In this document: positions 31,737-46,761 of the stretch, in pieces
Layout: the number at the start of each line of letters is the position of its first letter
How positions within the stretch are numbered: position 1 is the stretch's first letter
Origin: Deltaproteobacteria bacterium
GTDB lineage: Bacteria > Myxococcota_A > Polyangia > Polyangiales > Houyiibacteriaceae
Direction of reading: 5' to 3'
DNA length: 64,000 bases
NCBI GenBank assembly: GCA_034670305.1
Contig: JAXMNT010000028.1
Span: 1 to 64,000, forward strand
Notes under the pieces: model-generated
Database searches by the model: none
What the model was told of the DNA's origin: nothing
The model's input: only the letters and a program-made list of their open reading frames with translations
Program-made: the position numbers and the translations under genes

Positions 31737-33128
31737 TCAGGAGCCGTCCGAACGCGCCTGCGGCGGTGTGGTCTGGGCTTCGAGGACGCGCAGTACGTTC
31801 TCGCCGAAGATCGGGCGCACCGGCAGGCCGCGCGCCGCGAGCGCGTCTTTGAGCGCGCCGAGGTCCGAGACGTCCCGCATCCCGACCGGCAACTCTGGCA
31901 CCCCGTCGAAGTCCGAACCCAGACACGCGCCGCCGGGACCCGCCAACGCGACGACCTTCTCGAAATGATCGGCCAGCGTTTGTAAGGTCGGTGGGTCGAG
32001 GTCCGGGTCGAGTTCCTGCGCGAGTTCGAATGCGGCCTGCCCGCGGTCGACCCAGTTCGGGTACCGCGCTTCAAGCGGCTCGAAGGCGCGGCGCCGGCGG
32101 AACTCGATCGCGCGCCGCCGGCCTCGGTAGTCGGCGTCGATGAACTGGGTATAGAAGTTCACGCACACCGCGCCGCCGTTCTCACCGACCGCGCGGATCA
32201 TCTCATCCCGCATGTTGCGGGGATGGTCGGCGAGCGAGCGGACCGAGGAGTGGCTCGCGAGCACCGGGCGGGTGGTGGTCTCCATGACGTCCCAGAACGT
32301 CTGGTCGGACACGTGCGAGATGTCGACGATCATGCCGAGCTCGTTCATCAGACGGACCGCGCGCGTGCCGAGTGAGGTCAGCCCGGCGGCAGGATTGCTG
32401 CCACTCGACGAGTGACCGAGCGGGCTGTCCACCGACCAGGTGATCGTGATGTAGCGGCACCCGAGCCGGTGCAGTTCCCGAATGCGTTCGATCACGAGGT
32501 CGGGGTCGTCCGTGCCGAGCGCGTGGGCGCCCTCCACCCCCATCAGCATCGCGATCTTGTCCTCGCGCGCCGCCTCGCGGACGCACGGCGCGTCGGTGCA
32601 GAGAGACGCTTGCTCTGGGTGTGCTTCGGCGACTTCGCGCACCCGCCCGATCAAGGCCAGCGCGCGCTGCCACGCGGCTTCGCCGCGGTAGTCCGATGGC
32701 CGCACGTAGATGCTGAAAAACGCTGCGGTCAGTCCGCCCGCACGCATCCGAGGGACGTCGAGGTGACCGCCTTCCAACGCAGAGAAGGGATCGTCGCCGT
32801 CGTCCAGCATACGCTGCGTGGTGTCCACGTGGGTGTCGATGGCCACCATCGGTGCGTCCGCCCGCGCTTGCAGCGCGGCGAGCTCCGCAGCCCGTCGCGC
32901 TTCTGCGCGCTCGTCTGCTGCGCGGGCCGCGACGGAGGCCAAGTCGAGGGCGGCTTCGTCCTCGGCTTGCACAGCGTCTTCGTCGCGACCGCACCCCGCT
33001 TCGCGACACCCCCCAGCGGTGCACAGCAGCAGCAGGCCAGCCAGAATCGAACCCCACGTGGAGCTCGGCGCACGGGCCCTCGACGGGCAAGAGGATTGGA
33101 CCCACGAAGGCACCCTTTCCACTACCAT
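31737..33128 (-). CDS. Membrane dipeptidase (peptidase M19) family lipoprotein
   Basis: IDTHVDT, MGVEG, VDISH, ASHS, GSDFDG; lipobox-like LLLCTAGGC; start uncertain. Confidence 0.9.
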   Translation of the reverse strand: MVVERVPSWVQSSCPSRARAPSSTWGSILAGLLLLCTAGGCREAGCGRDEDAVQAEDEAALDLASVAARAADERAEARRAAELAALQARADAPMVAIDTHVDTTQRMLDDGDDPFSALEGGHLDVPRMRAGGLTAAFFSIYVRPSDYRGEAAWQRALALIGRVREVAEAHPEQASLCTDAPCVREAAREDKIAMLMGVEGAHALGTDDPDLVIERIRELHRLGCRYITITWSVDSPLGHSSSGSNPAAGLTSLGTRAVRLMNELGMIVDISHVSDQTFWDVMETTTRPVLASHSSVRSLADHPRNMRDEMIRAVGENGGAVCVNFYTQFIDADYRGRRRAIEFRRRRAFEPLEARYPNWVDRGQAAFELAQELDPDLDPPTLQTLADHFEKVVALAGPGGACLGSDFDGVPELPVGMRDVSDLGALKDALAARGLPVRPIFGENVLRVLEAQTTPPQARSDGS

Positions 33129-33140
33129 GCCGCCGGACCC

Positions 33141-36100
33141 ATGGTCGCGTCCAAGAAGCAGAAGCACACCCAGCTCGCCCTCTCCACCCTCGTGGTGGTC
33201 GACGAGCTTCCCGACGGAACGTGTCTCGTCTACCCGGTGGTCGAACCGCAGACGATTGCGGCGGGGCTCGAGGACAACGCCCTCACCGAGCTGCGTCTGT
33301 TTTTGAGCGAAGACCTCCAGGATGCGGAGGCCGAGCGCATCGCGCGATTCTCCCTGCCCGAAGATGCGTTCGAACAAACGTTTCAGATCGAGCTGCCTCA
33401 GCATGACGTCCCGAAGAACATGCGGCAGAGCGTGCGCGTTCCCGTGCAAACGGTGGTGGTGCCGCACGGCGACGCGCGGTGGGTGCTGATCCCGGCGCTG
33501 AAACACACGATCTACGTGAGCGCGACAGAGGCGCTCGAGGACATCGTCGCGAGCGAACTGGAGCGGCACCTGCTCGCCCGCCAACCCGACGCGTTCGCGC
33601 GACTCTCGCTCTTCGTGACCAGCCACCTGCGGGTGGAACGCATCGCGATTCACGTCGATCTGCCCGCCGCCCTCGCCGACGGCACCCGCGCGCTGCGATC
33701 CAAACTCGCCACCGCCCGCAAGCGGCGCCACGCGCTCGATGTGCTCGCCTCGGTGGGGGTCGCGGTGCACGACGAATCGTTCCTCGCGGGCCCGCCGGTG
33801 GTGGGGCGTACGAACGAGATCGCTGCGCTCGACGCGCTGCTCACTGCAGGCCGCCGCCAGTCGGTGCTGCTGGTCGGTCCCGAGCGCGTCGGCAAGACGA
33901 GCGTGCTGCTCGAGTGGTTGCGCACGAAGGGCGAGTCGCAACGGGTCTTCGGCACCAGCGGCGCGCAGCTGATCGCCGGCATGAGCGGACTCGGCCAGTG
34001 GCAAGCCAGGGTTCAGCGCGTCGTCGAAGCGGCAGAGACGCTCGACGCGATCCTCTACTTCGACGACCTGCGCGATCTGTTCGACCAGCGCGGCGCGAGT
34101 GGCGTCGACATCCCAGCCGCGATGAAGTCGGCGATCGAAGAGGGGCGGATTCGAATCGTCGGCGAGCTCACCGAAGAAGCGGCCGACTTGCTCTCCAGCC
34201 AGCGCGAGGGGTTCTTCCAATCGCTGCACACCATCCGCGTGCCCACGCTCGACCGCGCGGTCTCCGCGACGATGCTCGCGCAGCGCGCCGAGTACACCAA
34301 GACCCACCGCGACCACCTCCCCGAGGTTCAGCCGAGCGCGCTCGAGGCGATGCTCGCGCTGTGCGAGCGCTACCTTCCCTACCGCCCCTTCCCTGGGAAA
34401 GCCGCAGAGCTCTTCGATCAGGTCGTGCAGAGCGCCGAACGCCCCGGGGTGGTGCTCGACGCCGAATCGGAGATACGGGCCAGCGACGTCTACCGTCTGT
34501 TCAGCATCCAGTCCGGCATCCCGGAGTTCCTGCTCCGGGACGACCGCAGCCTCGACCCCGCACGGCTCACCGCACGGTTTCAGTCGCGGCTCATCGGCCA
34601 GACGAACGCTGTGTCGGCGGTGGTGGACACGCTCTGTGTGGTGAAGGCCGGACTGCAGCCCGCTGAGAAACCGCTCGCCACGTTCCTCTTCGTCGGCCCG
34701 ACCGGTGTCGGCAAGACCGAACTCGCGCGCGCGCTCGCGGAGATCCTCTACGGCGCGGAAGACCGGCTCATCCGCTTCGACATGAGCGAGTACGCGGACC
34801 CCTCGGCTGCCCAGCGGCTGATCGCGGGTGGCGACGGCGGCCGCGACGGTCTGTTGACCCGCAAGGTCCGCGAGCAACCATTCGCCGTGATCCTCCTCGA
34901 TGAGATCGAGAAGGCGCATCCCTCCGTGTTCGATCTGTTGCTGCAGGTCACCGGCGAAGGCCGGCTCACCGACGCCCGCGGGCGCACCGCGTTCTTCCAG
35001 AACTCGATCGTCATCATGACCAGCAACCTCGGCGCGACCCACCGGCGCACGCGGGTCGGCATCGAGTCCGCGCCGGACCTCGAGGGTCACTACCTCGACG
35101 AAGTTCGAAAGTGGTTCCGCCCCGAGTTCGTGGGTCGGCTCGACCGGGTGATCCCGTTCCGTCCCCTCGACCGCGACGAAGTCCGGACCATCGCCACGCT
35201 GATGCTCGAACGCATCCGCGGCCGCCGCGGCTTGCAGGATCGCGGCAGCGCGCTCGAGCTGACCGACGCGGCGCTCACCGCCCTCGCCGAAGGCGGCTTC
35301 CACGAAGCGTACGGCGCACGCGCGCTGCGCCGGCACGCCGAAGAAGCGCTGGTGGCACCCATCGCGACCGCGATCGCGCACGCACCGCGCGGCGCCCAGC
35401 TTCACGTCCGGCTCGAAGACGAACCGCCACCCGGCGAACCACTTCAGAAGGCGGTCCGCAACGGGCTGGTGGTTGAAGTGTTGCCCGCCGAACACAAGGT
35501 CAGCCTGAGCGAACTCCAGGTGCTGAACGAAGTGCTTCTGCTTCGTCGTCAGGCCGGTCAGTGGATGGAGCTGCCGGCGGTCGAAGCCCACCGAGAAGAG
35601 ATGTTCACGACGCTCGCCCGGCTGAGCATGCCGCGCTCCAAGAAGGAGCAAGCCCGGGCTGGTCAAGAGATGGCGCGGCTGCAACACCGCCACGCGCAGT
35701 TGAGCGCCTCCTGGGCCCCGGTCCAGGCGGTGCGCGACGAGATCCACGATCTGGAGGAGCTGGTGTTCGCGGCGTGGATGGAACGCGATCGGTACGAGGG
35801 CGCCAAAGAAGAGATCGTGCGGCTGCGACATGAGATGCGCATGGCGCTCTTCCAGATCTACCTAGAGCTCGACGCGCAGCACGAAGCGACCGCCATGCTC
35901 GTCGAACAGGACGAGGGACGCACGTTGGAGCACTGGCTCCTCCCCCTCTACGCCGACGCCGAACGCCGTGGGTGGGAGATCGCGGTGCACCGGTTCAAGG
36001 ATCCGATCGCCAGCCCGGACTGGCCCAAGGAGCGGGGTTTCGGTCCGCCCCGCACCCGGGCGGAGATCACCGAGTGGCTGCAAGAGCCCGCCCGCGATCG

Positions 36101-36533
36101 CGCGGTGCTCTTGATGCGCGTCCGCGGTCGCCACGCCGGCACGCAGATCGCCGCCGAGAAGGGGCTGCACCGTTTTCTGGGTGTGCCTCCGAAGGCGGCC
36201 GGCGCGCACCACATGGTCAAACTTCTCTCGATGCGCTTCGACCTCAAAGCCGACGACTGGTTGCGTGGCCCGATGCAACCGGACGCCCCCGGCGTAAGCA
36301 GCGCGCTCCTGAAAGGCGGCTGCACCCGCTACACCGACGAACGTCCGGACCAGAAGCTGCCCGACGCCTACGTCGAGGTCCCGCTGGACCAATACTGGTC
36401 TCCCTTCAACGCGGACGAACTCTGTCTGCGCGAACTCATCACGCTCGACATCTCTCCGAACCGGGACCGGAGCGGCCTCTGCGACGCGCCGCTCGACCGG
36501 GGGCCGAAGTCGGAGTCGGAGGCGAACGCATGA
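33141..36533 (+). CDS. ClpA/B-like double AAA+ ATPase 1 with C-terminal release-factor-like region
   Basis: D1 GPERVGKT; D2 GPTGVGKTE, FDMSEY, LLDEIEKAH, TSNLG, YGARALRR; extra ~330-aa C-terminus. Confidence 0.92.
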   Translation: MVASKKQKHTQLALSTLVVVDELPDGTCLVYPVVEPQTIAAGLEDNALTELRLFLSEDLQDAEAERIARFSLPEDAFEQTFQIELPQHDVPKNMRQSVRVPVQTVVVPHGDARWVLIPALKHTIYVSATEALEDIVASELERHLLARQPDAFARLSLFVTSHLRVERIAIHVDLPAALADGTRALRSKLATARKRRHALDVLASVGVAVHDESFLAGPPVVGRTNEIAALDALLTAGRRQSVLLVGPERVGKTSVLLEWLRTKGESQRVFGTSGAQLIAGMSGLGQWQARVQRVVEAAETLDAILYFDDLRDLFDQRGASGVDIPAAMKSAIEEGRIRIVGELTEEAADLLSSQREGFFQSLHTIRVPTLDRAVSATMLAQRAEYTKTHRDHLPEVQPSALEAMLALCERYLPYRPFPGKAAELFDQVVQSAERPGVVLDAESEIRASDVYRLFSIQSGIPEFLLRDDRSLDPARLTARFQSRLIGQTNAVSAVVDTLCVVKAGLQPAEKPLATFLFVGPTGVGKTELARALAEILYGAEDRLIRFDMSEYADPSAAQRLIAGGDGGRDGLLTRKVREQPFAVILLDEIEKAHPSVFDLLLQVTGEGRLTDARGRTAFFQNSIVIMTSNLGATHRRTRVGIESAPDLEGHYLDEVRKWFRPEFVGRLDRVIPFRPLDRDEVRTIATLMLERIRGRRGLQDRGSALELTDAALTALAEGGFHEAYGARALRRHAEEALVAPIATAIAHAPRGAQLHVRLEDEPPPGEPLQKAVRNGLVVEVLPAEHKVSLSELQVLNEVLLLRRQAGQWMELPAVEAHREEMFTTLARLSMPRSKKEQARAGQEMARLQHRHAQLSASWAPVQAVRDEIHDLEELVFAAWMERDRYEGAKEEIVRLRHEMRMALFQIYLELDAQHEATAMLVEQDEGRTLEHWLLPLYADAERRGWEIAVHRFKDPIASPDWPKERGFGPPRTRAEITEWLQEPARDRAVLLMRVRGRHAGTQIAAEKGLHRFLGVPPKAAGAHHMVKLLSMRFDLKADDWLRGPMQPDAPGVSSALLKGGCTRYTDERPDQKLPDAYVEVPLDQYWSPFNADELCLRELITLDISPNRDRSGLCDAPLDRGPKSESEANA

Positions 36534-39500
36534 ACGTCGTGCTCCACCTCTTCGAACGGAAGGCCAACGGGGTGTTGAGTTGGTCCACGGTCGGCCTCGG
36601 TCCGCTGAACCAGCAGCTCACCATGCGCAGCCAAGCGAAGATGCGCGCGAAGATGACCGAGGCCGTGAAGACAGCGGTGGGCGGCGCGTCCCACCACGCG
36701 CTTCGATTGCTCGCCGGGCCCTCGCCGAAGCTGCAGCGGGTGCGGCTCGAACTCGTGCTCAAGGGCGAGCGCGGCAAACGCAAGAAGCCCGGCGTCTTTC
36801 CGATCGTGTTCGACACGCGCCGGATCGGTGCCACCGAACGGGTGACCCTCGCGTACCACCCCATCCGTCAACAAGACGTCCAGGTCCTGGACCCCACCGA
36901 GTCGACCGAATCGCAGCTCAGCCGGTTCTTCTCCAAGCAGTGGGCCGAACTCGACGACGAAGCGATCACCGCGCTCGCGGGACGCAAAGGCGACCTCATT
37001 CGGGCGCTTTCGATCACCGTGCGGCCGAAGTCGTTGCTCGACACGCTCGAATCCCGCCGAGGACTGTGGGCCGATCTCGAAGTCGATCCTGACCGTCGGC
37101 GCGACGGTTCCAAGAAGTCGAAGAAGACCAAGTCCAAAGCGGCCGGCAACCCCTCCCTCCTTCAGCGCCTGGGCGCGGACCAGACCGCGCGGGCCGCCGA
37201 CGAGTCCCTCGAGATCGGGCGGCCACGCGAACCACTGCGCGGACAGTTGGGTCAGCTTCTTGGCGGGCCCCGCCGGCAGAGCACGGTGATTCTCGGCGCC
37301 CCGGGCGTCGGCAAACGAACCGCGCTCCGGCACCTGGTCGCCGATCTGCTAGAACACGACGGCTACCCAAGCCACCGCAACCTCGACCGCGTCACCCACG
37401 TCTGGACGGTGCAAGCGAGCCACCTCATCGCGGGCATGAGCTACCTCGGCGAATGGGAGAAGCGCGTCGTCGAACTCGTCGACGAAGTGCGCGGCCGACC
37501 CATCCTCGTGTGGATCGAGGATCTGCATACGCTTGGCCGCGTGGGGCGCAGCCGCGACAGCGAGCGGTGCATGGCCGACGTCTTGCGCGGCCCTGTCCAG
37601 CGCGGCGAGGTCGTGCTCGTCGGCAGCTGTACCCCGTCCCAGTGGCACCGGCTCGAAGAGGACGCGCCTGGGCTCGCCGCCGCCTTCACGACGTTGAGGC
37701 TGGACCCGGCCACCGAACGCGAGACGCTGCAGATGATCTTGCACGAGGTTCGGGTGCTCGAATCCGAAGAGCGCTGCGTGCTCCCTCCCGCGGTCTTGCG
37801 CGGCGTCCTCGAGGAAGGCGCCATCCTCGCCGACCAGTCGCTGCCTGGACGAGCGCTCGACCTCTTGCGCTCACTCGGACGCGGACGGGTCGGCCCTGTG
37901 CACTTCGACGAGCTGGTCGGGGTGCTCGCGCAACGCACCGGTTTGCCGAGCACCATCCTCGACTGGGACGACGGCGAGTCCCGCGAGGAGGTGCTGCACG
38001 AGCTCGGCGAATCCGTGATGGGTCAACCGGACGCGCTCGAAGCTGCGGCCGATCTCATTCTCCGGATCCAGACCGGCCTGACCGATCCCAAGCGCCCCTT
38101 CGGCGCGTTCCTCTTCACCGGTCCGACGGGCACCGGCAAGACGCAGCTGGCCAAGACCATCGCGAGCGCACTCTTCGGGGTCAGCCGACTCGTGCGCTTC
38201 GACATGGGCGAGTTCTCGGGCGCCGATGCGGTGCCGCGCCTGATGGGCGACCGCTGGAACCCGCGGGGACGGCTGACCGAAGCGATTCGCCAGCAGCCGT
38301 TCAGCGTGCTCTTGCTCGACGAGATCGAGAAAGCCCATCCGTCCGTGCTCTACCTGCTCTTGCAGCTGCTCGACGACGGTCGGCTGACGGACGCCACCGG
38401 CGAGCGCGTCGACTTCACCCGCAGCGTGGTGATCCTCACCAGCAACCTCGGCGCACGCACACGTCCCTCGCTCGGATTCAAGGACGCCAACGACGCCGCC
38501 GGCCAGGCGCGCGAGGCCACCCGGACCGCGCAGGACGTCGACAAAGCGGTGAAGGAGTTCTTTCCGCCGGAACTCTTCAACCGGATCGAGAAGGTCGTCT
38601 CCTTCAACCCGCTCAGCGAGACCACCGCGCGCGCCATCGCCGATCGAGAGCTCGCGATGTTGCTCGCACGCCGTGGCCTGCAGGAACGGAACGTCTTCGT
38701 CATTCCGCACGAGTCCGCCATCACCCACATGGCGCGCGCGGCGTTCGACTCGCGCGCCGGCGCGCGCAGCGTGAAGCGCTACCTGGAGACCCACGTCGCC
38801 TCGCTCTTGGCTGAACACCTCGCCTCGCGGGCCCGCCCGGAGATGGAGCTCATTCGCCTCTACCACGAGGGCGACGCCTACCGAATTGCCGCGAGCGCGT
38901 TGACCGAAGACGAACCGCTCGCCGGCGACTCTCCCCTGCGCCCGCTCCTCGACGCCAGCACCGCCCAACTCGCGGCGCATTTGCCCGATGCGCTGTCCCG
39001 CATCGACGCGCTTCGTTCCGACGGTTCGTTGGCGGCGCTCTCGGACCGGCTTCAAACCCACCTCGGCAAAGCCACCTCCAGCGCTGGCGACGCAGACGCC
39101 GTCTACTTCATCGACGTGCTGCGCAAGGAGCTCGACGAGTTCCGCGAACACCTCGAGACCTGGGCGGAGGCAGACGCAATCATTGAAGAGCGCGAGCAGT
39201 TGATCGCGGTCGAGCAGTACGACCGCAGCCCCGCGAGTGAGGGGGACCCGCCGGCGCGGGTGCGCCTGCTTCACCGCCGGTGGATGCGCCCTCCCCTGCC
39301 GCGCCACGACCGCCGCGAGATGCTGGCCGCATTCGCCGATCTGGCGTTCCTCGAACGCGCCGTACGCTCTGGCGCTCCGCTCGGCGGGGACGCGCTCGCG
39401 AGCCACCGGGTGCACGTCGAACTGCTTCGCGTCGGACGGGCGTACGGCGGGAACGCCTCCCTTCTCCCGACCTTGGCCACCTTCTACGCATCGTTGCGCG

Positions 39501-39997
39501 GCGAGTTCGTCTCGGCCGCGTCCTGGGGACCGAACTCCGAACTCTGCACGGGCAGCCTGTCCAAGGTCACCCAGCACCACGCAACCACCTACGTGCTGGA
39601 GCTCGCCGGCATCGACTTGCTCACGGCGTTGTCGGGTGAGACTGGGTGTCACCTGCGGGTCTCGCCCGATGGAGAGTCCGAGGTGGTCCGGGTTCAGCTG
39701 CGGCCCGCCGCGGAAGGTGGACCGGGAGCGGCGATCGAGAAGCTCCTCTCCGACCGCGAACGGTACGCCTCCGCACTCGAGCGAGGTGTGCACCCCGACG
39801 TGGAGGATCCGGACCGACTGCTCCCCGTCGTGCGGCGCATCACGGGCGACCGCCCCACCCGCCAGCCAGCGCTCGTCCAGGTCGAAGACTACCGGGTGCA
39901 GCACGCCGAGCAGGGCCGGGTCCTCAAGATCGAAGAGCTGCTCTTGCCCATGACCTGGCTCCATACGACGTGGTCCGCAGATGGGGTGCCGTCGTGA
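36530..39997 (+). CDS. ClpA/B-like double AAA+ ATPase 2 with C-terminal release-factor-like region
   Basis: ATGA overlap with gene 1; D1 GAPGVGKR; D2 GPTGTGKT, LLDEIEKAH, TSNLG, GARSVKR; extra C-terminus. Confidence 0.92.
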   Translation: MNVVLHLFERKANGVLSWSTVGLGPLNQQLTMRSQAKMRAKMTEAVKTAVGGASHHALRLLAGPSPKLQRVRLELVLKGERGKRKKPGVFPIVFDTRRIGATERVTLAYHPIRQQDVQVLDPTESTESQLSRFFSKQWAELDDEAITALAGRKGDLIRALSITVRPKSLLDTLESRRGLWADLEVDPDRRRDGSKKSKKTKSKAAGNPSLLQRLGADQTARAADESLEIGRPREPLRGQLGQLLGGPRRQSTVILGAPGVGKRTALRHLVADLLEHDGYPSHRNLDRVTHVWTVQASHLIAGMSYLGEWEKRVVELVDEVRGRPILVWIEDLHTLGRVGRSRDSERCMADVLRGPVQRGEVVLVGSCTPSQWHRLEEDAPGLAAAFTTLRLDPATERETLQMILHEVRVLESEERCVLPPAVLRGVLEEGAILADQSLPGRALDLLRSLGRGRVGPVHFDELVGVLAQRTGLPSTILDWDDGESREEVLHELGESVMGQPDALEAAADLILRIQTGLTDPKRPFGAFLFTGPTGTGKTQLAKTIASALFGVSRLVRFDMGEFSGADAVPRLMGDRWNPRGRLTEAIRQQPFSVLLLDEIEKAHPSVLYLLLQLLDDGRLTDATGERVDFTRSVVILTSNLGARTRPSLGFKDANDAAGQAREATRTAQDVDKAVKEFFPPELFNRIEKVVSFNPLSETTARAIADRELAMLLARRGLQERNVFVIPHESAITHMARAAFDSRAGARSVKRYLETHVASLLAEHLASRARPEMELIRLYHEGDAYRIAASALTEDEPLAGDSPLRPLLDASTAQLAAHLPDALSRIDALRSDGSLAALSDRLQTHLGKATSSAGDADAVYFIDVLRKELDEFREHLETWAEADAIIEEREQLIAVEQYDRSPASEGDPPARVRLLHRRWMRPPLPRHDRREMLAAFADLAFLERAVRSGAPLGGDALASHRVHVELLRVGRAYGGNASLLPTLATFYASLRGEFVSAASWGPNSELCTGSLSKVTQHHATTYVLELAGIDLLTALSGETGCHLRVSPDGESEVVRVQLRPAAEGGPGAAIEKLLSDRERYASALERGVHPDVEDPDRLLPVVRRITGDRPTRQPALVQVEDYRVQHAEQGRVLKIEELLLPMTWLHTTWSADGVPS

Positions 39998-42243
39998 CCG
40001 AGCCGAACAGCAAGAGCTCGCTGCGGGTCTACTTCATCGAACACGCGGATGGTCGCCGGACCGGGCATTTGATGCGGCGGCTGCGGACCTTCTTCGATCC
40101 CCCGGCGCCGACCGCGTACGGAGAGACCGAAGAAGAGGTGTACGGACGCATCGAAGCCGAGCTTCAGGAGCGCATCGTCCGGGGCGATGTGATCGAGCGG
40201 TACCTCTGGAACGAACACTTCGAGACCCGGACCGTGTCGCTGGAGGTCTACCCGGTCGCGATGATCGAGCAGCAACCGGTGGTCGGCGCACGGGAACTCC
40301 CACTCCGTCTGACGTACGCGTACGCCAAGACCGAGAGCGGCGCGTACCGAGTGATGCTGCCGCGCTTCGAGTGGTGGCTGGTGCTCGAGAGCCTCGACAC
40401 CGCCAAACACGCGATCAGCCATGCGGTGGCCGCCGCGATGCTCGGCGCCGAACCGGCGTGGCTCTACGACTTCCGGCGCGAAGGCAACGAGTACGTCCGG
40501 GAGTGGGCGCCGCCCATGGTCCGCGACCGCAGCAAGAAGCCGGCGGCCCGCGCGCGCGAGGAACGACCCACGCTCGCGGCCGTCGCTGACGACTGGGTCG
40601 AACGCGCGTCGAAGGGCAAGCTGCCGAAGCCCGTCGGTGAGGCGCGCCTCAAGCCGCACTGGAACGCCTTCAAACGCACCCCCTACTCGGCGCTCCTCGT
40701 GGGCGGCCCCGGCGTGGGCAAGACCTGCGAGGTGCAACACCTCGCTCGGATCCTTCTTCAGGCCCGCCGCGCGAACGAGAAGGACGTGCCCGGCCTCTTC
40801 GCCACCCGGGCCGACCGCCTCATCTCGGGCATGATCTACGTCGGCATGTGGCAGGAGCGGATGCTGAAACTCGTGGAGGAGCTTCGCCACGAGAACGAGG
40901 TCCTCTACGTCGACCGGCTCGATGGGTTGCTCCGCCCGCAGCCCGACGGCGCGTCGCTCGCGGACATGCTCGCGCCGGCACTCGCCGCGCGCGAGATCTT
41001 CTTGATGGCGGAGTGCACCCCGGCCGAGCTGGTCGAAGCGCGCCGCTTGAACGCGTCGTTCGTCGACTTGCTCACGACCATCCACCTGCGCGAACCGCAC
41101 GCGGCTTGGATGCTCCCACACCTCACCGAGTACGCGCGCCGCGGCAAGAAGTCCTTCGAACGCCGCTCGATGAAGCGCTCGCTGGAGCTTCTGGGCGCCT
41201 ACCGCCGCGACCGGCGCTTCCCTGGCAAAGCGTTCCGGTTCATCGACGCGATCGAGCGGGACGACCAGACCCCGCGCGCCCTCTACCCGAACGACGTGGA
41301 GCAGGCGTTCTCTCGCCAGACCGGGTTGCCGATCGAACTCATCAGCGACAGCCACGCAGCGAGCGTCGAACACGTGGGCGCAGCCCTTCAGAAGTGGGTG
41401 ATCGGGCAGGACGGCGCGTGCCTGCGCGCCGCCCGCGCCATCGCGCCCTTCAAAGCCGGACTCAACCCGCCCGATCGCCCGCTGGCCAGCTTGCTCTTCG
41501 CAGGTCCGACCGGCGTCGGCAAAACCGAGCTCGCCAAGACGATGACGCGCTACCTCTTCGGCGGCACCCACCGGCTGGTGCGCATCGACATGAGCGAGCT
41601 CAATGCCCGCGGCGCCTCGCACCGGCTCCTGGCGGCGGGCCGCGGTGTGCGAAGCCTGGCCGAGTCGGTCCGCCGGGAGCCCCTGTCGGTCGTGCTCTTC
41701 GACGAGGTCGAGAAGGCCGCCAGCGACGCGTTCGACGTCTTGCTCGGCATCCTCGGAGAGGGCCGCCTGACCGACGCGCTCGGGCGGTTCGTCGACTTCC
41801 GCATGACGCTCATCGTGATGACGTCCAACCTCGGCGTGCGGGCCTCGGGACCGGTCGGGTTCGGTGGAGCCGCCACCGGTGAGGACTTCTTGCGCGCGGT
41901 ACGGGATCACTTCCGGCCAGAGTTCGTGGGCCGCATCGATCAGCTCGTGCCCTTCTCGCACCTCGAGCCCGAAGACGTCCGCAAGATCGTCGACCTGCAG
42001 CTGGCGCTCGTGGAAAAGCGCGAGGGCTTCGCTCGGAGAGGCATTCGCATCGAAGTCTCGGGCGACGCCCGCACCCGCCTGGCCGAGCTCGGCTACGACC
42101 GCCGCTTCGGCGCCCGCCCCCTCAAGCGCGTCATCGAAGCCCACGTCGTGACCCCGATCGCCGTCCGGCTCAGCGCCGATCCGAAACTCGCCAACACCAC
42201 CCTGCACATCGGCACGACCAGCGCGGCGGACGTCGTCGTCTGA
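39994..42243 (+). CDS. ClpA/B-like double AAA+ ATPase 3 (no C-terminal extension)
   Basis: GTGA overlap with gene 2; D1 GGPGVGKT; D2 GPTGVGKTE, FDEVEKA, TSNLG, FGARPLKR. Confidence 0.92.
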   Translation: MTEPNSKSSLRVYFIEHADGRRTGHLMRRLRTFFDPPAPTAYGETEEEVYGRIEAELQERIVRGDVIERYLWNEHFETRTVSLEVYPVAMIEQQPVVGARELPLRLTYAYAKTESGAYRVMLPRFEWWLVLESLDTAKHAISHAVAAAMLGAEPAWLYDFRREGNEYVREWAPPMVRDRSKKPAARAREERPTLAAVADDWVERASKGKLPKPVGEARLKPHWNAFKRTPYSALLVGGPGVGKTCEVQHLARILLQARRANEKDVPGLFATRADRLISGMIYVGMWQERMLKLVEELRHENEVLYVDRLDGLLRPQPDGASLADMLAPALAAREIFLMAECTPAELVEARRLNASFVDLLTTIHLREPHAAWMLPHLTEYARRGKKSFERRSMKRSLELLGAYRRDRRFPGKAFRFIDAIERDDQTPRALYPNDVEQAFSRQTGLPIELISDSHAASVEHVGAALQKWVIGQDGACLRAARAIAPFKAGLNPPDRPLASLLFAGPTGVGKTELAKTMTRYLFGGTHRLVRIDMSELNARGASHRLLAAGRGVRSLAESVRREPLSVVLFDEVEKAASDAFDVLLGILGEGRLTDALGRFVDFRMTLIVMTSNLGVRASGPVGFGGAATGEDFLRAVRDHFRPEFVGRIDQLVPFSHLEPEDVRKIVDLQLALVEKREGFARRGIRIEVSGDARTRLAELGYDRRFGARPLKRVIEAHVVTPIAVRLSADPKLANTTLHIGTTSAADVVV

Positions 42244-42333
42244 CGCTCGCATGCACCCAGCGAGGGCCTCGTGTCGTGACCCGGGGTGAGGGTCGGATGT
42301 CGCCGCGCGATCCGATGTGGTAGACGCCCGCGC

Positions 42334-43440
42334 ATGGAACTCGTGCGCCCGGCCCTCTCCCGCGATCCCCTCAGTGGCGACACCGACTGGTTCGCCGTCG
42401 AGTACGACCCCGAGACCCGCGAGGTCGTCATGCTCGAGCAGCGCGCCCTCCCGAGCGAGGTGAACTACCACCGCTACCGGACGGTCGACGAGATCGCCGA
42501 TTCCATCCGGGACATGGTGGTGCGCGGCGCCCCGGCGATCGGGATCGCGGCGGCCTACGGGCTCGTGCTGCTCGCTGGAAAAGAGAAGGGAGACGCACCG
42601 ACCTTCCTCATGGCGAACGGGGTCGCGGGCAAACACCTCAACGCGACGCGTCCGACCGCCGTGAACCTGGCCTGGGCCATCGCCCGCATGTCCCGCAAAG
42701 CCGCGGACGTGGCCGCGCTCGATCCCGACGCGCGCTACGCGGCGATGCTGGAAGAGGCCGAGAACATCCACCGCGAAGACGTCGCCTCGTGCCGCGCGAT
42801 GGGGGCCCTGGGCGCCGCCGATGTCCCTGAGGGCGCGACCATCCTCACCCACTGCAACGCGGGGGCGCTGGCGACCGGTGGCTACGGCACCGCGCTCGGC
42901 GTCATTCGCGCCGCCCACGAGGCGGGCAAGAAGATCCGCGTGCTGGCCGACGAGACCAGGCCCTACCTGCAAGGTGCGCGGCTCACCGCGTGGGAACTCT
43001 TCGCGGACGACATCCCCGTTGAAGTCATCACCGACAACATGGCCGGGCACTTCTTCCAGAAAGGCGAGATCGACTTCGTCGTGGTCGGCTCCGACCGCAT
43101 CGCCGCCAACGGAGACGTCGCCAACAAGATCGGCACCTACAGCGTGGCCGTGCTCGCCCGCGCCCACGAGGTCCCCTTCACCGTCGCCGCGCCCTGGAGC
43201 ACGATCGATCTCTCGATGCCCACCGGCGAAGGCATCCCCATCGAACAGCGCAGCCGCGAAGAGGTCGCGGTGGTGGGTCAGCGCACCCTCGTCGCCGATG
43301 GCATCCCCTGCCGACACCCTGCGTTCGATGTGACCCCGGCCCGGCTGGTCGACGCGATCTACACGGAACGCGGCGTCATCCGCCCAGCCAAGGGCGAGTC
43401 GCCCGCCTCCGTGATCGCAGAGAAGAAGGCGCAGGGATGA
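42334..43440 (+). CDS. mtnA: S-methyl-5-thioribose-1-phosphate isomerase
   Basis: [51 protein letters not shown]. Confidence 0.96.
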
Positions 43441-43961
43441 AGCTGACCGAAGCGGAGGTCCGCCACATCGCGCAGCTCGCCCGCATCCAACTCGACGACG
43501 AAGAGATCGCCCGCACCGCATCCGAACTCACCGCCATCCTCACCCACGTCGCCGAGCTCGACCGCTTCCAAGAAGGCGCAGCTTCGCAGTCGGATTCGGC
43601 AACGGATTCGGCATCGGCTCCAGCATCGGCTTCAGATTCGGCATCGGATTCGGCATCGGCTTCGGCTTCGGCATCGACTTCGGATTCGGATTCGGATTCG
43701 GCATCGGCTGCGGCGTCGGCGTCGGCTTCGGCATCGGAATCGGCTTCGGATTCGGCTTCGGATTCGGCTTCGGCTTCGGATTCGGCGTCGGATTCGGCAT
43801 CGGATTCGGCTTCGGCGTCGGCTTCGGCTTCGGCTTCGGATTCGGCATCGGCATCGGCATCGGCTCCGGCTCCCCCAGCAGACCCCGCCGCCCTCACCGC
43901 CGCCGCGCCCGCGTTCGTCTCCGACGGCTTCCTCTTCCCACGCGCGGTGAAATCGAAATGA
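43437..43961 (+). CDS. gatC: Asp/Glu-tRNA amidotransferase subunit C with internal Ser-rich repeat insertion
   Basis: [12 protein letters not shown]-terminus; AP…DGFLFPR C-terminus; directly upstream of gatA. Confidence 0.85.
43588..43870. repeat. TCGGCN/TCGGAT hexamer tract in frame within gatC
   Basis: Encodes about 94 aa of (SA/SD)n. Confidence 0.93.
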
Positions 43962-45325
43962 CCGACGCCATGACGGCGGCCGAGATCGTCGAAGAAGCCC
44001 AGACCGGCGACCCGTTGCGTTTCGCGATCGCCGCCCACGCGCGTCTGTCGAACACAGACACCCACCACACCACGCTCCAGATTCTCGAGCCCGAGCAGCC
44101 GCCCGCACCCGGCCCGCTGACCGGCGTCGCGATCGCGCTCAAGGACAACATCTGCCAACGCGGCACCCGCACGACCTGCGCGTCGCGCTTGCTCGAACAC
44201 TGGGAAGCCCCCTACGACGCGACCGTCGCCAAGCGGCTGCGAGACGCCGGCGCGTTGCTGGTCGCCAAGACCAACATGGACGAGTTCGGCATGGGCTCTT
44301 CCACCGAGAACAGCGCGTTCGGTCCCACGACCCACCCGCTCGACGCCACTCGAGTGCCCGGCGGATCGAGCGGGGGCTCCGCCGCAATCGTCGCCGCCGC
44401 GCTCGTCCCGATCGCGCTCGGCAGCGACACTGGCGGGTCGGTGCGCCAGCCCGCGGCGTTCTGTGGCGTGTTCGGCCTCAAACCCACCTACGGGGCGGTG
44501 TCGCGCTTCGGGCTCGTCGCCTTCGGTTCCAGCCTCGACCAGATTGGGCCGCTCGCCACGACCTCGCGCGATTGCGCGCGCACCTTCGACGTGATCGCCG
44601 GACACGACCCGGCCGACGCAACATCCGCCAAGCACGCCCACGCTTCCACCGAACAAGCGTGCGGGCGCTCGGTCGTCGGTGAGCGGATCGGTGTGCCGCG
44701 CGCGCTCCTCGAAGGCGCGAGCGACGAAGTCCTTCGCGCGTTCGACGAGGGCCTGTCCGAGCTCCGGGAGGCCGGCGCCGAGGTGGTCGACATCGAGCTG
44801 CCGAACGCCGCGCTCTCGGTCAGCGCCTACTACGTTCTCGCCACCGCGGAGGCGTCGAGCAACCTCGCGCGCTTCGACGGCGGCCGGTACGGCCTGCGGG
44901 TCGACGCGCCCGATCTGCAGTCGATGTACGAACGCACACGCGCGTGTTTCGGAGCCGAGGTGAAGCGGCGCATCTTGCTCGGCACCTTCGCGCTCTCGGC
45001 CGGCTACCACGACCGGTTCTACGCCAAAGCGCAGGCGGTGCGACACGCGATCGCGGCCGACTTCGCGACGGCTTTCGCAGCGGGCTGCACCGCCGTCGCC
45101 ACGCCCACGACACCCACGGTCGCGTTCGAACTGGGCAGCTACGAGGGCGACCCACTCGCGATGTACCTCTCGGACCTCTACACCCTGCCCGCGAGCCTTG
45201 CCGGACTACCCGCCTTGAGCGCGCCCTTGCGCCGACCCCGCGGCGCGCTCCCCGCCGGGTTGCAGCTCGTTGCGCCGGCGTTTCAGGAAGCGACGCTCTT
45301 CGCACTCGGGTCGGTGTTCGGATGA
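43958..45325 (+). CDS. gatA: Asp/Glu-tRNA amidotransferase subunit A
   Basis: ALKDN, KTNMDEFGMGSSTENS, PGGSSGGS, GSDTGGSVRQPA, EVKRRILLGT. Confidence 0.95.
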   Translation: MTDAMTAAEIVEEAQTGDPLRFAIAAHARLSNTDTHHTTLQILEPEQPPAPGPLTGVAIALKDNICQRGTRTTCASRLLEHWEAPYDATVAKRLRDAGALLVAKTNMDEFGMGSSTENSAFGPTTHPLDATRVPGGSSGGSAAIVAAALVPIALGSDTGGSVRQPAAFCGVFGLKPTYGAVSRFGLVAFGSSLDQIGPLATTSRDCARTFDVIAGHDPADATSAKHAHASTEQACGRSVVGERIGVPRALLEGASDEVLRAFDEGLSELREAGAEVVDIELPNAALSVSAYYVLATAEASSNLARFDGGRYGLRVDAPDLQSMYERTRACFGAEVKRRILLGTFALSAGYHDRFYAKAQAVRHAIAADFATAFAAGCTAVATPTTPTVAFELGSYEGDPLAMYLSDLYTLPASLAGLPALSAPLRRPRGALPAGLQLVAPAFQEATLFALGSVFG

Positions 45326-46761
45326 CCGAGTTCGAAACCGTCATCGGACTCGAAGTCCACGCGCAACTCCGCACGGGCCGCAAACTCTTCTGCCGGTGCG
45401 CCACCTCGTTCGGCGCGCCGCCCAACACGCAGATCTGTCCGGTGTGTCTCGGACTGCCCGGCGCGCTCCCGGTGGTGGATCCAGCCGCGGTGGACCTCGC
45501 GATCGCGGCTGGGCTCGCGCTCGATTGCGAGGTGCGCGCCCGGAGCGTGTTCGCGCGCAAGAGCTACTTCTATCCGGACCTCGCCAAGGGCTACCAGATC
45601 ACGCAGTTCGAGCGCCCCTTGCTCGAACGGGGGCACCTCCAAATCGGTGACCAGCGCACGCGCATTCTGCGCATCCACATGGAGGAGGACGCCGCGAAGA
45701 GTGGCCACTCGTCCGCGGGGACGGTGGTGGACTTCAACCGCGCGGGCGTCGCGTTGATCGAGATCGTCTCCGAACCGGATCTCAGGTCCGCCGAAGATGC
45801 CGAAGCGTACCTGCGCGCCCTGCGCGAGATCTTGCTCCACGTCGGCGCATGCGACGGCAACCTGGAAGAAGGGTCCTTCCGCTGCGACGCCAACGTTTCG
45901 GTGCGGCCCGCGGGGGATCCAGTGCTCGGGACCCGCGTCGAGCTCAAGAACATCAACTCGTTCCGATTCGTCCGACTCGCGATCGACAACGAAGCGGCGC
46001 GCCAGCGCGCCATCGTCTCGAGCGGCGGCACGGTCGTGCAGCAGACCCGCAGCTGGGACGAGGCGAAGCAGTCCACGTTCTTGATGCGCACCAAAGAAGA
46101 AGCGGAGGACTACCGCTACTTCCCCGATCCGGATCTGCCGACGCTCGTCGTCTCGCAGGGCCGCATCCGCGCCATCGAATCGACGCTGCCCGAGCGTCCT
46201 GCGGCGCGCCGCCTCCGCTGGCAGGCCACCTACGGCGTCTTGCCCGAACAATCCGAACCGCTCGGCGCCCATCCCCAGGTGGCGAACTACGTCGACGAGG
46301 TCGTGTCCAAGGTGCTCGAGTCCACCGAAGACAACCACGCCGACGCGGGCCGAAGGGTGCTGCTCTTCTTGCTCGGCGAGGTGCTTCGACACATCCCACT
46401 CGACGGGGTTCACGCGCGCTTCGCGGTGGACGCTGAGCGCCTGAGCGAGCTGCTCGTGCTGGTCGAGCGAGGCACCATTCACGTCGGCGTCGCCAAGGAC
46501 GTGTTTCAGCGACTCCTCGAGACCGACGCGCGGCCAGCAGACATCGTCGAAGCCGAAGGTCTCGCACAGCTCACGGACGCGAACGCCATCGCGGACGTCG
46601 TCGCGAAGATCGTCGCCGATCATCCCGCGCAGCTGGCGCAATACCGGGCGGGCAAGACCAAGGTGTTCGGCTTCTTCGTCGGCCAGGTGATGAAGGCCAC
46701 CCGCGGGCGGGCAAACCCGGCCCAGGTGCAGGCCGCGGTGCGCGCCGCGCTCGACTCATAG
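45322..46761 (+). CDS. gatB: Asp/Glu-tRNA amidotransferase subunit B
   Basis: VIGLEVHAQL, CPVCLGLPG, YFYPDL, RCDANVS, DYRYFPDPDL, FFVGQVMK. Confidence 0.97.
   Translation: MTEFETVIGLEVHAQLRTGRKLFCRCATSFGAPPNTQICPVCLGLPGALPVVDPAAVDLAIAAGLALDCEVRARSVFARKSYFYPDLAKGYQITQFERPLLERGHLQIGDQRTRILRIHMEEDAAKSGHSSAGTVVDFNRAGVALIEIVSEPDLRSAEDAEAYLRALREILLHVGACDGNLEEGSFRCDANVSVRPAGDPVLGTRVELKNINSFRFVRLAIDNEAARQRAIVSSGGTVVQQTRSWDEAKQSTFLMRTKEEAEDYRYFPDPDLPTLVVSQGRIRAIESTLPERPAARRLRWQATYGVLPEQSEPLGAHPQVANYVDEVVSKVLESTEDNHADAGRRVLLFLLGEVLRHIPLDGVHARFAVDAERLSELLVLVERGTIHVGVAKDVFQRLLETDARPADIVEAEGLAQLTDANAIADVVAKIVADHPAQLAQYRAGKTKVFGFFVGQVMKATRGRANPAQVQAAVRAALDS

Follow-up and report, generated by a model that had tools for sequence, protein, structure and literature searches.

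Three co-inherited Clp-like ATPases of Myxococcota, two with release-factor-like C-terminal domains: a possible mixed-ring machine directed at translation

Clp/Hsp100 ATPases are homo-hexamers encoded by single genes. Here we describe three consecutive genes, referred to hereafter as A, B and C, that encode diverged Clp-like ATPases and are retained together in a subset of the Myxococcota. They lie in a 64,000-nucleotide stretch of DNA from a member of the Polyangiales (the window; positions 1 to 64,000 of contig JAXMNT010000028.1, assembly GCA_034670305.1). Like ClpA and ClpC, the three proteins have tandem AAA+ modules, with an AAA_2-type second module (D2) followed by a D2-small domain, and a loop of the hGF or hGI type; as in ClpA, there is no M-domain. 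Unlike ClpA and ClpC, they lack Clp_N, the first module (D1) is without the Walker-B glutamate and the arginine fingers, and the GYVG loop of D2 is deleted. Where ClpA and ClpC are each the product of one gene, the trio comprises three apparently obligate paralogues with a new N-terminal domain and, on two of them, a release-factor-like C-terminal domain of 375 residues. The conservation of A-B-C, the three old clades, the degenerate D1, the hGF loops and the release-factor homology of the A and B tails are new here. Our tentative reading, which we place a little short of an even chance, is that A, B and C form an obligate three-paralogue machine derived from ClpA/C, a mixed hexamer aimed at the translation apparatus and possibly feeding ClpP.

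Other described systems share single features with the trio. Pex1/Pex6, as commonly described, also consists of paralogous two-module subunits that are needed together and combine a degenerate D1 with an active D2; it differs in being eukaryotic, in having two paralogues of another AAA+ clade and in its aromatic D2 pore loops, and co-assembly of the trio is a prediction. The C-terminal domain of A (C1) aligns with the class-I release factors RF1 and RF2 over 232 columns and keeps their G..A...L..E.G.HR motif. Like the plant protein PrfB3, as characterized in a section of PMC5897788, it has neither GGQ nor an SPF/PxT motif. Unlike RF1/RF2 and PrfB3, C1 forms the C-terminal part of a Clp-type ATPase, carries a family-specific insert and, as a single sequence, falls below the cut-off of the Pfam release-factor family PCRF. 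In Vms1/ANKZF1-Cdc48 a release-factor-type module is likewise joined to a double-ring AAA+ ATPase (PMC6514570, in the part consulted), an analogy that extends only to how such a device might work: Vms1 adopts the archaeo-eukaryotic eRF1 fold, which is unrelated, and uses a VIM motif for non-covalent binding to Cdc48, whereas the trio has a bacterial-type release-factor domain that is covalently fused and, to judge by its motifs, catalytically dead. Only a generic D2 module is shared with Dodola DolB, PDC-M37B and IetA, from which the trio differs in domain layout and in lacking conserved partner genes. Literature searches turned up no paper in which a Clp-type ATPase bears a fused release-factor or PCRF domain and none on a Clp operon with three paralogues, and the text of PMC7159879 and PMC6514570, as distinct from their supplementary lists, which might include it, mentions no such architecture in the parts covered. 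The locus had been put forward as a candidate undescribed system when it was first noticed from its sequence (the original prediction), and we found no description of the layout in print.

All three genes are on the plus strand. Gene A (33141-36533; 1130 aa) and gene B (36530-39997; 1155 aa) have the same architecture: an N-terminal domain, a degenerate D1, an active-looking D2 and a release-factor-like C-terminal domain. Gene C (39994-42243; 749 aa) encodes the N-terminal domain, D1 and D2 and ends without a C-terminal extension. Across both ATPase modules the three proteins are 31-38% identical to each other. At the A/B junction (gcATGAacg) the ATG of B lies on the TGA of A at 36530-36533, and at the B/C junction (tcGTGAcc) the GTG of C lies on the TGA of B at 39994-39997. 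The open reading frames and junction sequences thus bear out the original prediction of three consecutive genes of these sizes joined by ATGA and GTGA overlaps.

The ATPase cores occupy 33786-35405 in A and 37205-38854 in B. Pfam AAA_2 was found in A, B and C (E = 1.5e-43, 4.6e-39 and 1.7e-37, respectively), each time with ClpB_D2-small; the first module gave weak generic P-loop matches only, and Clp_N was absent from the listing at E ≤ 0.01. The NCBIfam models for ClpA, ClpB, ClpK, ClpG and TssH gave 195-318 bits and their cut-offs of 885-1900 were not reached: scores were 286-297 bits for ClpA (TIGR02639, cut-off 993), 301-318 bits for ClpB (TIGR03346, cut-off 1232) and 195-258 bits for ClpV/TssH (TIGR03345, cut-off 885). 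The ClpA model aligned in a single stretch (about 190-760). Moreover, the two Walker A motifs are only 266-274 residues apart (positions 243/515, 253/527 and 234/500), compared with 402 residues (201/603) in a ClpB encoded by the same genome, and hence we conclude that A, B and C have no M-domain. By homology, A, B and C classify as two-module Clp/Hsp100-like ATPases with a D2 of the AAA_2 type plus D2-small. The absence of Clp_N and of a ClpB M-domain had been anticipated in the original prediction; its description of the genes as double-AAA+ is right by homology, with the qualification that A, B and C all have a degenerate first module.

This degeneracy was evident when the D1 modules, which align with canonical D1, were compared with the four canonical Clp proteins encoded by the host genome. 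The Walker-B glutamate and the arginine fingers are missing from all three: the canonical 'IDE' is replaced by 'FDD' in A, 'IED' in B (where a variable residue precedes Asp) and 'VDR' in C, and the arginine-free sequences 'GFFQSL', 'GLAAAF' and 'SFVDLL' replace the arginine-finger motif 'ALARRFQ'. The D1 Walker A of A reads GPERVGKT, while in B it contains 'GKRT', with the threonine changed to arginine in six of nine B orthologues. An aromatic D1 pore-loop residue is retained in B and C ('SYLG' and 'IYVG') and is glycine in A. In contrast, Walker A, Walker B (DE), sensor-1, the arginine finger and sensor-2 are intact in the D2 of all three proteins. The D2 pore-1 loop, 'GAPPGYVGY' in canonical proteins, is 4-6 residues shorter and without its tyrosine in every family member examined; a conserved aromatic residue (W/F) is present in this short loop ('GDRW.P.G') only in myxobacterial B proteins.

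A maximum-likelihood tree of 72 D1-D2 cores, built after excluding reading frames that at best matched protein C over less than about 420 residues, separated the A/B/C family from the host genome's four canonical Clp proteins with a branch support of 100. Divergence from canonical Clp, also part of the original prediction, therefore takes the form of a separate clade. Within it the myxobacterial sequences formed an A clade (22 rows), a B clade (17 rows) and a C clade (21 rows), each with a support of 100, and matching sister pairs such as L116+L120, L112+L113 and L115+L118 recurred in the three. The third gene of a planctomycete trio described below joined C (support 98) and the first gene joined A (support 80); the tree left the placement of the second planctomycete gene and of the three genes of a distant deltaproteobacterial trio (L017) unresolved. 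Across 16 loci, the matrices of pairwise distances for A, B and C were correlated (r = 0.88-0.91), as is expected of co-inherited genes and with no proof of interaction in the correlation. On this tree A, B and C are the products of an old triplication, in clades apart from canonical Clp.

The trio was conserved as a unit. Among 30 relatives retrieved, 10 carried a C orthologue (full-length, with one partial) beside A- and B-like genes and 20 gave matches at the level of canonical Clp only. The order A-B-C was found in 8/8 complete loci of relatives (L007-L014), with orthology over the full length including the N- and C-terminal domains, and a tandem A-B-C in 11 of 12 further genomes; a neighbourhood comparison thus returned a conserved trio in place of the singly occurring homologues that would have spoken against one. 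The G+C content of the A-B-C loci from relatives ranged from 60 to 75%. The 4-nt overlap recurred at 11 of 14 A-B junctions and 13 of 18 B-C junctions, with gene starts in the other genomes called heuristically. No fourth gene was conserved: no flanking family occurred in more than 4 of 25 loci, and flanks were common only to close kin.

The frequency of the trio was estimated in 401 genomes drawn evenly from the phylum, with the C-terminal domains of A and B and the N-terminal domain of C as markers. The A marker was present in 14 genomes, the B marker in 14 and the C marker in 16, and the union of the three was also 16. A tandem trio was seen in 13 of these 16, namely the window's own genome, G012 and 11 of the 12 newly fetched genomes. 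In two genomes (G173 and G267) the single-sequence B marker missed a B gene that tblastn located in tandem. In G224, A lies on one contig and B-C on another, and in G323, which is fragmented and 87% complete, B and C are accompanied by an A-type N-terminal domain at a contig end. The distribution is patchy and mostly in large genomes (4.8-11.1 Mb).

More distant trios (L017, L026) were recovered by a search of genome contigs with the B alignment, a search based on generic peptide patterns that returned mostly canonical Clp matches. A metagenome-assembled genome (MAG) of the Pirellulaceae has the same layout, with genes of 1184, 1147 and 779 aa, and in a 'Deltaproteobacteria' MAG (L017) genes of 1202, 1194 and 1015 aa stand in tandem. 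Of 201 genomes sampled from the planctomycete order concerned, 6 carried the planctomycete C-type N-terminal domain. The five carriers other than the source genome included one with a tandem trio and two with markers on two or three contigs; in one planctomycete (G490) the A, B and C markers are on three contigs, the C-bearing one 107 kb long, and the fifth carrier, G477, has an incomplete set described below. C-type genes with no A or B within 7 kb were found at L141 and L143. Taken as a whole, A-B-C is a conserved, self-contained set that is retained together even when unlinked, as in G224 and G490. As a separate observation, a MAG named 'bacterium isolate bin.35' (L066:2504-7133) carries a single A-like gene of 1072 aa followed by an overlapping gene for a 476-aa subtilase (Peptidase_S8, E = 3e-42). 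This ATPase groups with the first planctomycete gene beside clade A, and the ATPase-subtilase pair recalls candidate defence pairs of the IetAS type.

The C-terminal domains of A and B, about 375 aa each, provide the link to translation. C1 (35406-36530; residues 756-1130 of A) is, by comparison of sequence profiles, on which all domain assignments here are based, a diverged homologue of the class-I release factors RF1 and RF2. When compared by hhalign with 28 RF1/RF2 sequences from the phylum, it matched at 96.8% (E = 3e-10), with residues 57-322 of C1 aligned to residues 5-256 of the release factors, and it matched the RF1 and RF2 of its own genome at 78% (E = 1.8e-5); unrelated control comparisons by the same procedure gave under 1%. 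A profile of 20 C1 orthologues searched against sequences of the Protein Data Bank (PDB) found RF2 or RF1 in 11 of 20 matches, including the top 8 (E = 0.016-0.11), in collinear alignments, the remaining matches being coiled coils. The aligned region covers domains 1-2 and extends into domain 3 of the release factors; it takes in the GTPase-interacting helical domain and the codon-recognition domain. Pfam PCRF matched 5 of 20 C1 members weakly (E ≤ 0.1) and was not among the 25 families listed for 43 full-length A relatives, where P-loop families dominate. The nearest named clusters of C1 in the ESM Atlas were all PCRF, one of them annotated 'ClpB_D2-small + PCRF', which we treat as a lead only.

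The corresponding domain of B (C2; 38855-39994; residues 776-1155) is homologous to C1 (hhalign 87%, E = 4e-6, 197 columns) and more weakly to RF1/RF2. No consistent Pfam match was obtained with 18 C2 members, none of which matched PCRF, and the C2 profile found matches at chance level only among PDB sequences. C2 nonetheless keeps 'GE.GCH', in which G264 is invariant and H266 nearly invariant (C2 numbering; G1039 and H1041 of B), and the release-factor core motif G..A...L..E.G.HR is invariant in the C-terminal domains. The functional motifs of release factors are not retained. GGQ was present in 0 of 20 C1 and 1 of 18 C2 sequences, compared with 28 of 28 release-factor controls, and the aligned position is unconserved; its occurrence in 8 of 85 full-length relatives is about the estimated chance rate. 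The C1 columns aligned with the stop-codon recognition motifs (PxT/SPF and the helix-tip G..E) were variable when read by eye. The fold also contains a conserved family-specific insert (W-P...W-G-P-P-R).

A search of 1.84 billion representative sequences with the C1 profile returned 292 proteins, 155 of them at E ≤ 1e-30; among the 150 listed the C1 domain was C-terminal in every long protein, starting from about residue 680-830, and the shorter entries look like fragments. The tail of the first planctomycete gene also matched C1 (hhalign 64%, E = 6.6e-5). Some A proteins end in an additional tail resembling the C-terminal part of ribosomal protein L7/L12: Pfam Ribosomal_L12 was found in 3 of 20 (E = 6e-5), and phmmer detected such a tail in 26 of the 150 listed relatives that the profile of the A tail had returned. 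Two further observations concern release-factor-like sequences outside the myxobacterial A and B proteins. The third gene of L017 (8929-11976; 1015 aa) has a 270-aa C-terminal extension that is itself release-factor-like (hhalign 46%, E = 2e-4), and the ancestral system may for this reason have had tails on all three subunits. In the host genome, RF1 is encoded on contig C40 and RF2 on C4, and PCRF matches in part at a third place (37.6 bits, model positions 154-194), within a 254-aa open frame on C14 (139850-140213) that may encode a PrfH- or ArfB-like paralogue.

The N-terminal domains set the family apart as well. Those of A (33141-33785; residues 1-215), B (36530-37204; residues 1-225) and C (39994-40608; residues 1-205) are about 200 aa each and mutually homologous: hhalign gave 93% (E = 3.2e-7) for A with C, 88% (E = 3.4e-6) for A with B and 60% (E = 8.5e-5) for B with C. 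Compared with the N-termini of the four canonical Clp proteins of the host they reached 0.1%, so this domain is not Clp_N. There was no significant match in Pfam and no usable match in the ESM Atlas, and the C-type profile gave chance-level matches only among PDB sequences. The N-terminal domain of C had only 45 orthologues, all in proteins of 484-828 aa, with public names from Polyangiales and Myxococcota.

ClpA, ClpC and ClpX dock ClpP through a tripeptide loop after sensor-1 (IGF, IGL or VGF). A loop at the same position is present in each member of the trio. In A it is 'VGI' (35055-35063), its glycine being conserved in 10 of 10 orthologues and the next residue being F, I, L or P; in B it is 'LGF' (38471-38479), with GF in 9 of 9 orthologues and G649 and F650 invariant in the alignment (A1); and in C it is 'VGF' (41854-41862), with GF in 9 of 9 orthologues. 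The hGF loops align with the VGF of the host's own ClpA (contig C17) and of its Clp on contig C6, while its two ClpB-type proteins have a gap there. By this motif match, A, B and C keep a putative ClpP-docking loop, from which we infer possible coupling to ClpP. As originally noted, clpP, clpS and type VI secretion genes are not nearby. The host genome (7.9 Mb, 105 contigs, 96% complete, with the window as contig C28) carries its four canonical Clp genes on contigs other than C28, two clpP genes on C16 and C4 and clpS on C17 adjoining the canonical clpA, and TssC/VipB was not found in it. With two clpP genes in the genome and the hGF/hGI loops kept, the missing neighbour is not a sign of independence from ClpP.

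How such a machine might work can be sketched from these features. The overlapping start and stop codons would cause A, B and C to be made in coupled amounts, and the three proteins may, as originally proposed, co-assemble into a mixed hexamer, most simply A2B2C2, as is suggested by their co-occurrence, the coupling through overlaps and the paralogue-specific motifs. The D1 ring, having lost its catalytic glutamate and arginine fingers, would probably serve as a nucleotide-binding assembly ring in which B and C still present a pore-loop tyrosine, and the D2 ring would be the sole motor. The GGQ-less release-factor-like modules on A and B might target the machine to ribosomes, stalled or damaged ones for instance, or to translation GTPases, and the L7/L12-like tail of about one-sixth of the listed A relatives might contribute to the same targeting. 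The D2 motor would then remodel or extract something at the ribosome, perhaps into ClpP, since the hGF-type loops may allow substrates to be handed to one of the two ClpP proteases. If the C-terminal domains do target ribosomes, the trio would be a device for translation quality control rather than a general chaperone. A role in translation was among those proposed at the outset, and it has gained support from the release-factor-like domains. A more specific version, a bacterial counterpart of Vms1-Cdc48 in which an A2B2C2 ring places its GGQ-less mimics in the A site or GTPase centre of stalled or damaged ribosomes, extracts the nascent chain or a ribosomal component with its one active ATPase ring and transfers it through the hGF loops to ClpP, we consider doubtful.

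Several results weigh against the reading of a mixed hexamer aimed at translation. Because the ATPase motifs are complete in all three D2 modules, no sequence feature forces a mixed ring. The shortening of the D2 pore-1 loop and the loss of its GYVG tyrosine are family-wide, and the missing tyrosine argues against classical processive threading into ClpP; the term 'unfoldase' in the original prediction, taken in the classical threading sense, is accordingly doubtful. The C-terminal domains lie at the end that faces ClpP, where a substrate-recognition module would be awkwardly placed. Single sequences score below the PCRF gathering cut-off (15.5 bits for the window's C1, cut-off 24), and C2 alone is weak (hhalign with RF1/RF2 66%, E = 5.6e-5, 78 columns). 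With the codon-reading and GGQ motifs lost, the C-terminal domains may no longer bind ribosomes, and there is a precedent in chloroplast PrfB3, a GGQ-less relative of RF2 that has turned into an mRNA-binding protein according to a section of PMC5897788. Translation genes (gatCAB) adjoin the trio only in the window and its close kin. Nor is the set intact everywhere. In G302 the typical B and C genes occupy two different contigs, and a typical A was not found; in the planctomycete G477 the A marker was not found, and the B-type match falls in an open frame of 333 aa; in G030 (L014) B is split into two reading frames and C is without its first 130 residues or so; and in G198 (L117) A lacks the N-terminal domain and B its first half. 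The damaged trios of G030 and G198 could reflect gene decay or assembly error. A third contig of G302 carries a second, divergent tandem trio nearer the planctomycete type, so two trio systems may coexist in that genome (the G302 loci are L177, at 4500-18500 of contig C152, L178 and L179).

The separate retention of genes bears on whether a mixed ring exists at all. If A, B and C were three homo-hexameric Clp-like ATPases that act in one pathway from one operon, on different substrates for example, each could form a working ring with its full set of D2 motifs and its own hGF loop, and the unlinked genes of G224, G490 and G302 and the C-type genes found without A or B nearby (L141, L143) would be readily accommodated. 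We nevertheless think this unlikely. Nearly every genome with any one of the genes has kept all three, conservation of the 4-nt overlaps is widespread, and features are divided among the paralogues (the D1 tyrosine in B and C, the D2 aromatic residue in B only, the tail in A and B only) as would be expected of one assembly.

The state of the C-terminal domains bears on whether the target is the ribosome. They might instead have been repurposed as M-domain-like coiled-coil arms, clamps between subunits or RNA-binding modules of a proteostasis or remodelling machine that does not act on ribosomes. The missing codon-reading and GGQ motifs, the family-specific insert inside the release-factor-like fold, the lack of any consistently adjacent translation gene and the non-termination role of a GGQ-less RF2 relative (PMC5897788, in the part consulted) would all be in keeping with such a machine. 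However, the occurrence of an RF1/RF2-like domain and an L7/L12-like tail as fusions to the same family is hard to call chance, and core motifs of release factors such as G..A...L..E.G.HR are still invariant, so that we regard a non-ribosomal function too as having only a modest chance of being correct.

A role as an anti-phage or conflict system, in which the ATPases would sense or attack the translation of an invader or shut down the host ribosome as in abortive infection, is improbable: the defence finder PADLOC matched DolB and PDC-M37B at 51-82 bits and IetA weakly, the distribution is patchy and mostly in large genomes, the single-gene relative L066 has an overlapping subtilase as in IetAS-type pairs and release-factor paralogues have been proposed to stem from ribosome-targeting conflicts (PMC6514570, in the part consulted), but the PADLOC matches are limited to the generic D2 (model positions about 125-430 of 375-518), Pfam gave no nuclease, protease or toxin effector domain in any of the three proteins, no partner gene is conserved in 25 loci, the neighbours in the window are housekeeping genes and the matching topologies of A, B and C fit long vertical co-inheritance, which leaves the defence role raised in the original prediction without specific support.

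If the reading of A, B and C as a mixed-ring machine directed at translation is correct, the trio would be a bacterial hetero-oligomeric double-ring AAA+ machine built from three co-inherited paralogues with divided features. The fusion of a dead release factor, sometimes with an L7/L12-like tail, to a Clp ATPase points to a novel means by which an ATP-driven remodeller, perhaps together with ClpP proteolysis, could be linked to the ribosome. A ring that has kept the pore-loop tyrosine in its inactive tier and lost it in the active one would also bear on how AAA+ proteins grip their substrates.

The genes that flank the trio in the window are housekeeping genes. Directly downstream on the plus strand (42286-46761) are an IF-2B-family (MtnA-like) gene, a small reading frame that is possibly gatC, then gatA and gatB. 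Adjacency to the IF-2B-family gene, gatA and gatB is common only to the closest relatives (L008, L013 and partly L007), and these genes lie outside the conserved unit. Upstream of A, on the minus strand (31737-33130), is a divergent gene whose translation, read by eye, is membrane-dipeptidase-like and has a lipoprotein-like signal sequence. A promoter and terminator scan of the locus gave nothing above shuffled expectation, with no sigma-70-like site found. No RNA data set was listed as containing the locus; those listed were four DNA runs from a single study, which may be its source. Only about 10-40 nt separate the candidate starts of the dipeptidase-like gene from the A start codon (ATG, 33141), and consequently the trio must have a promoter that is within the dipeptidase-like gene or overlaps it.

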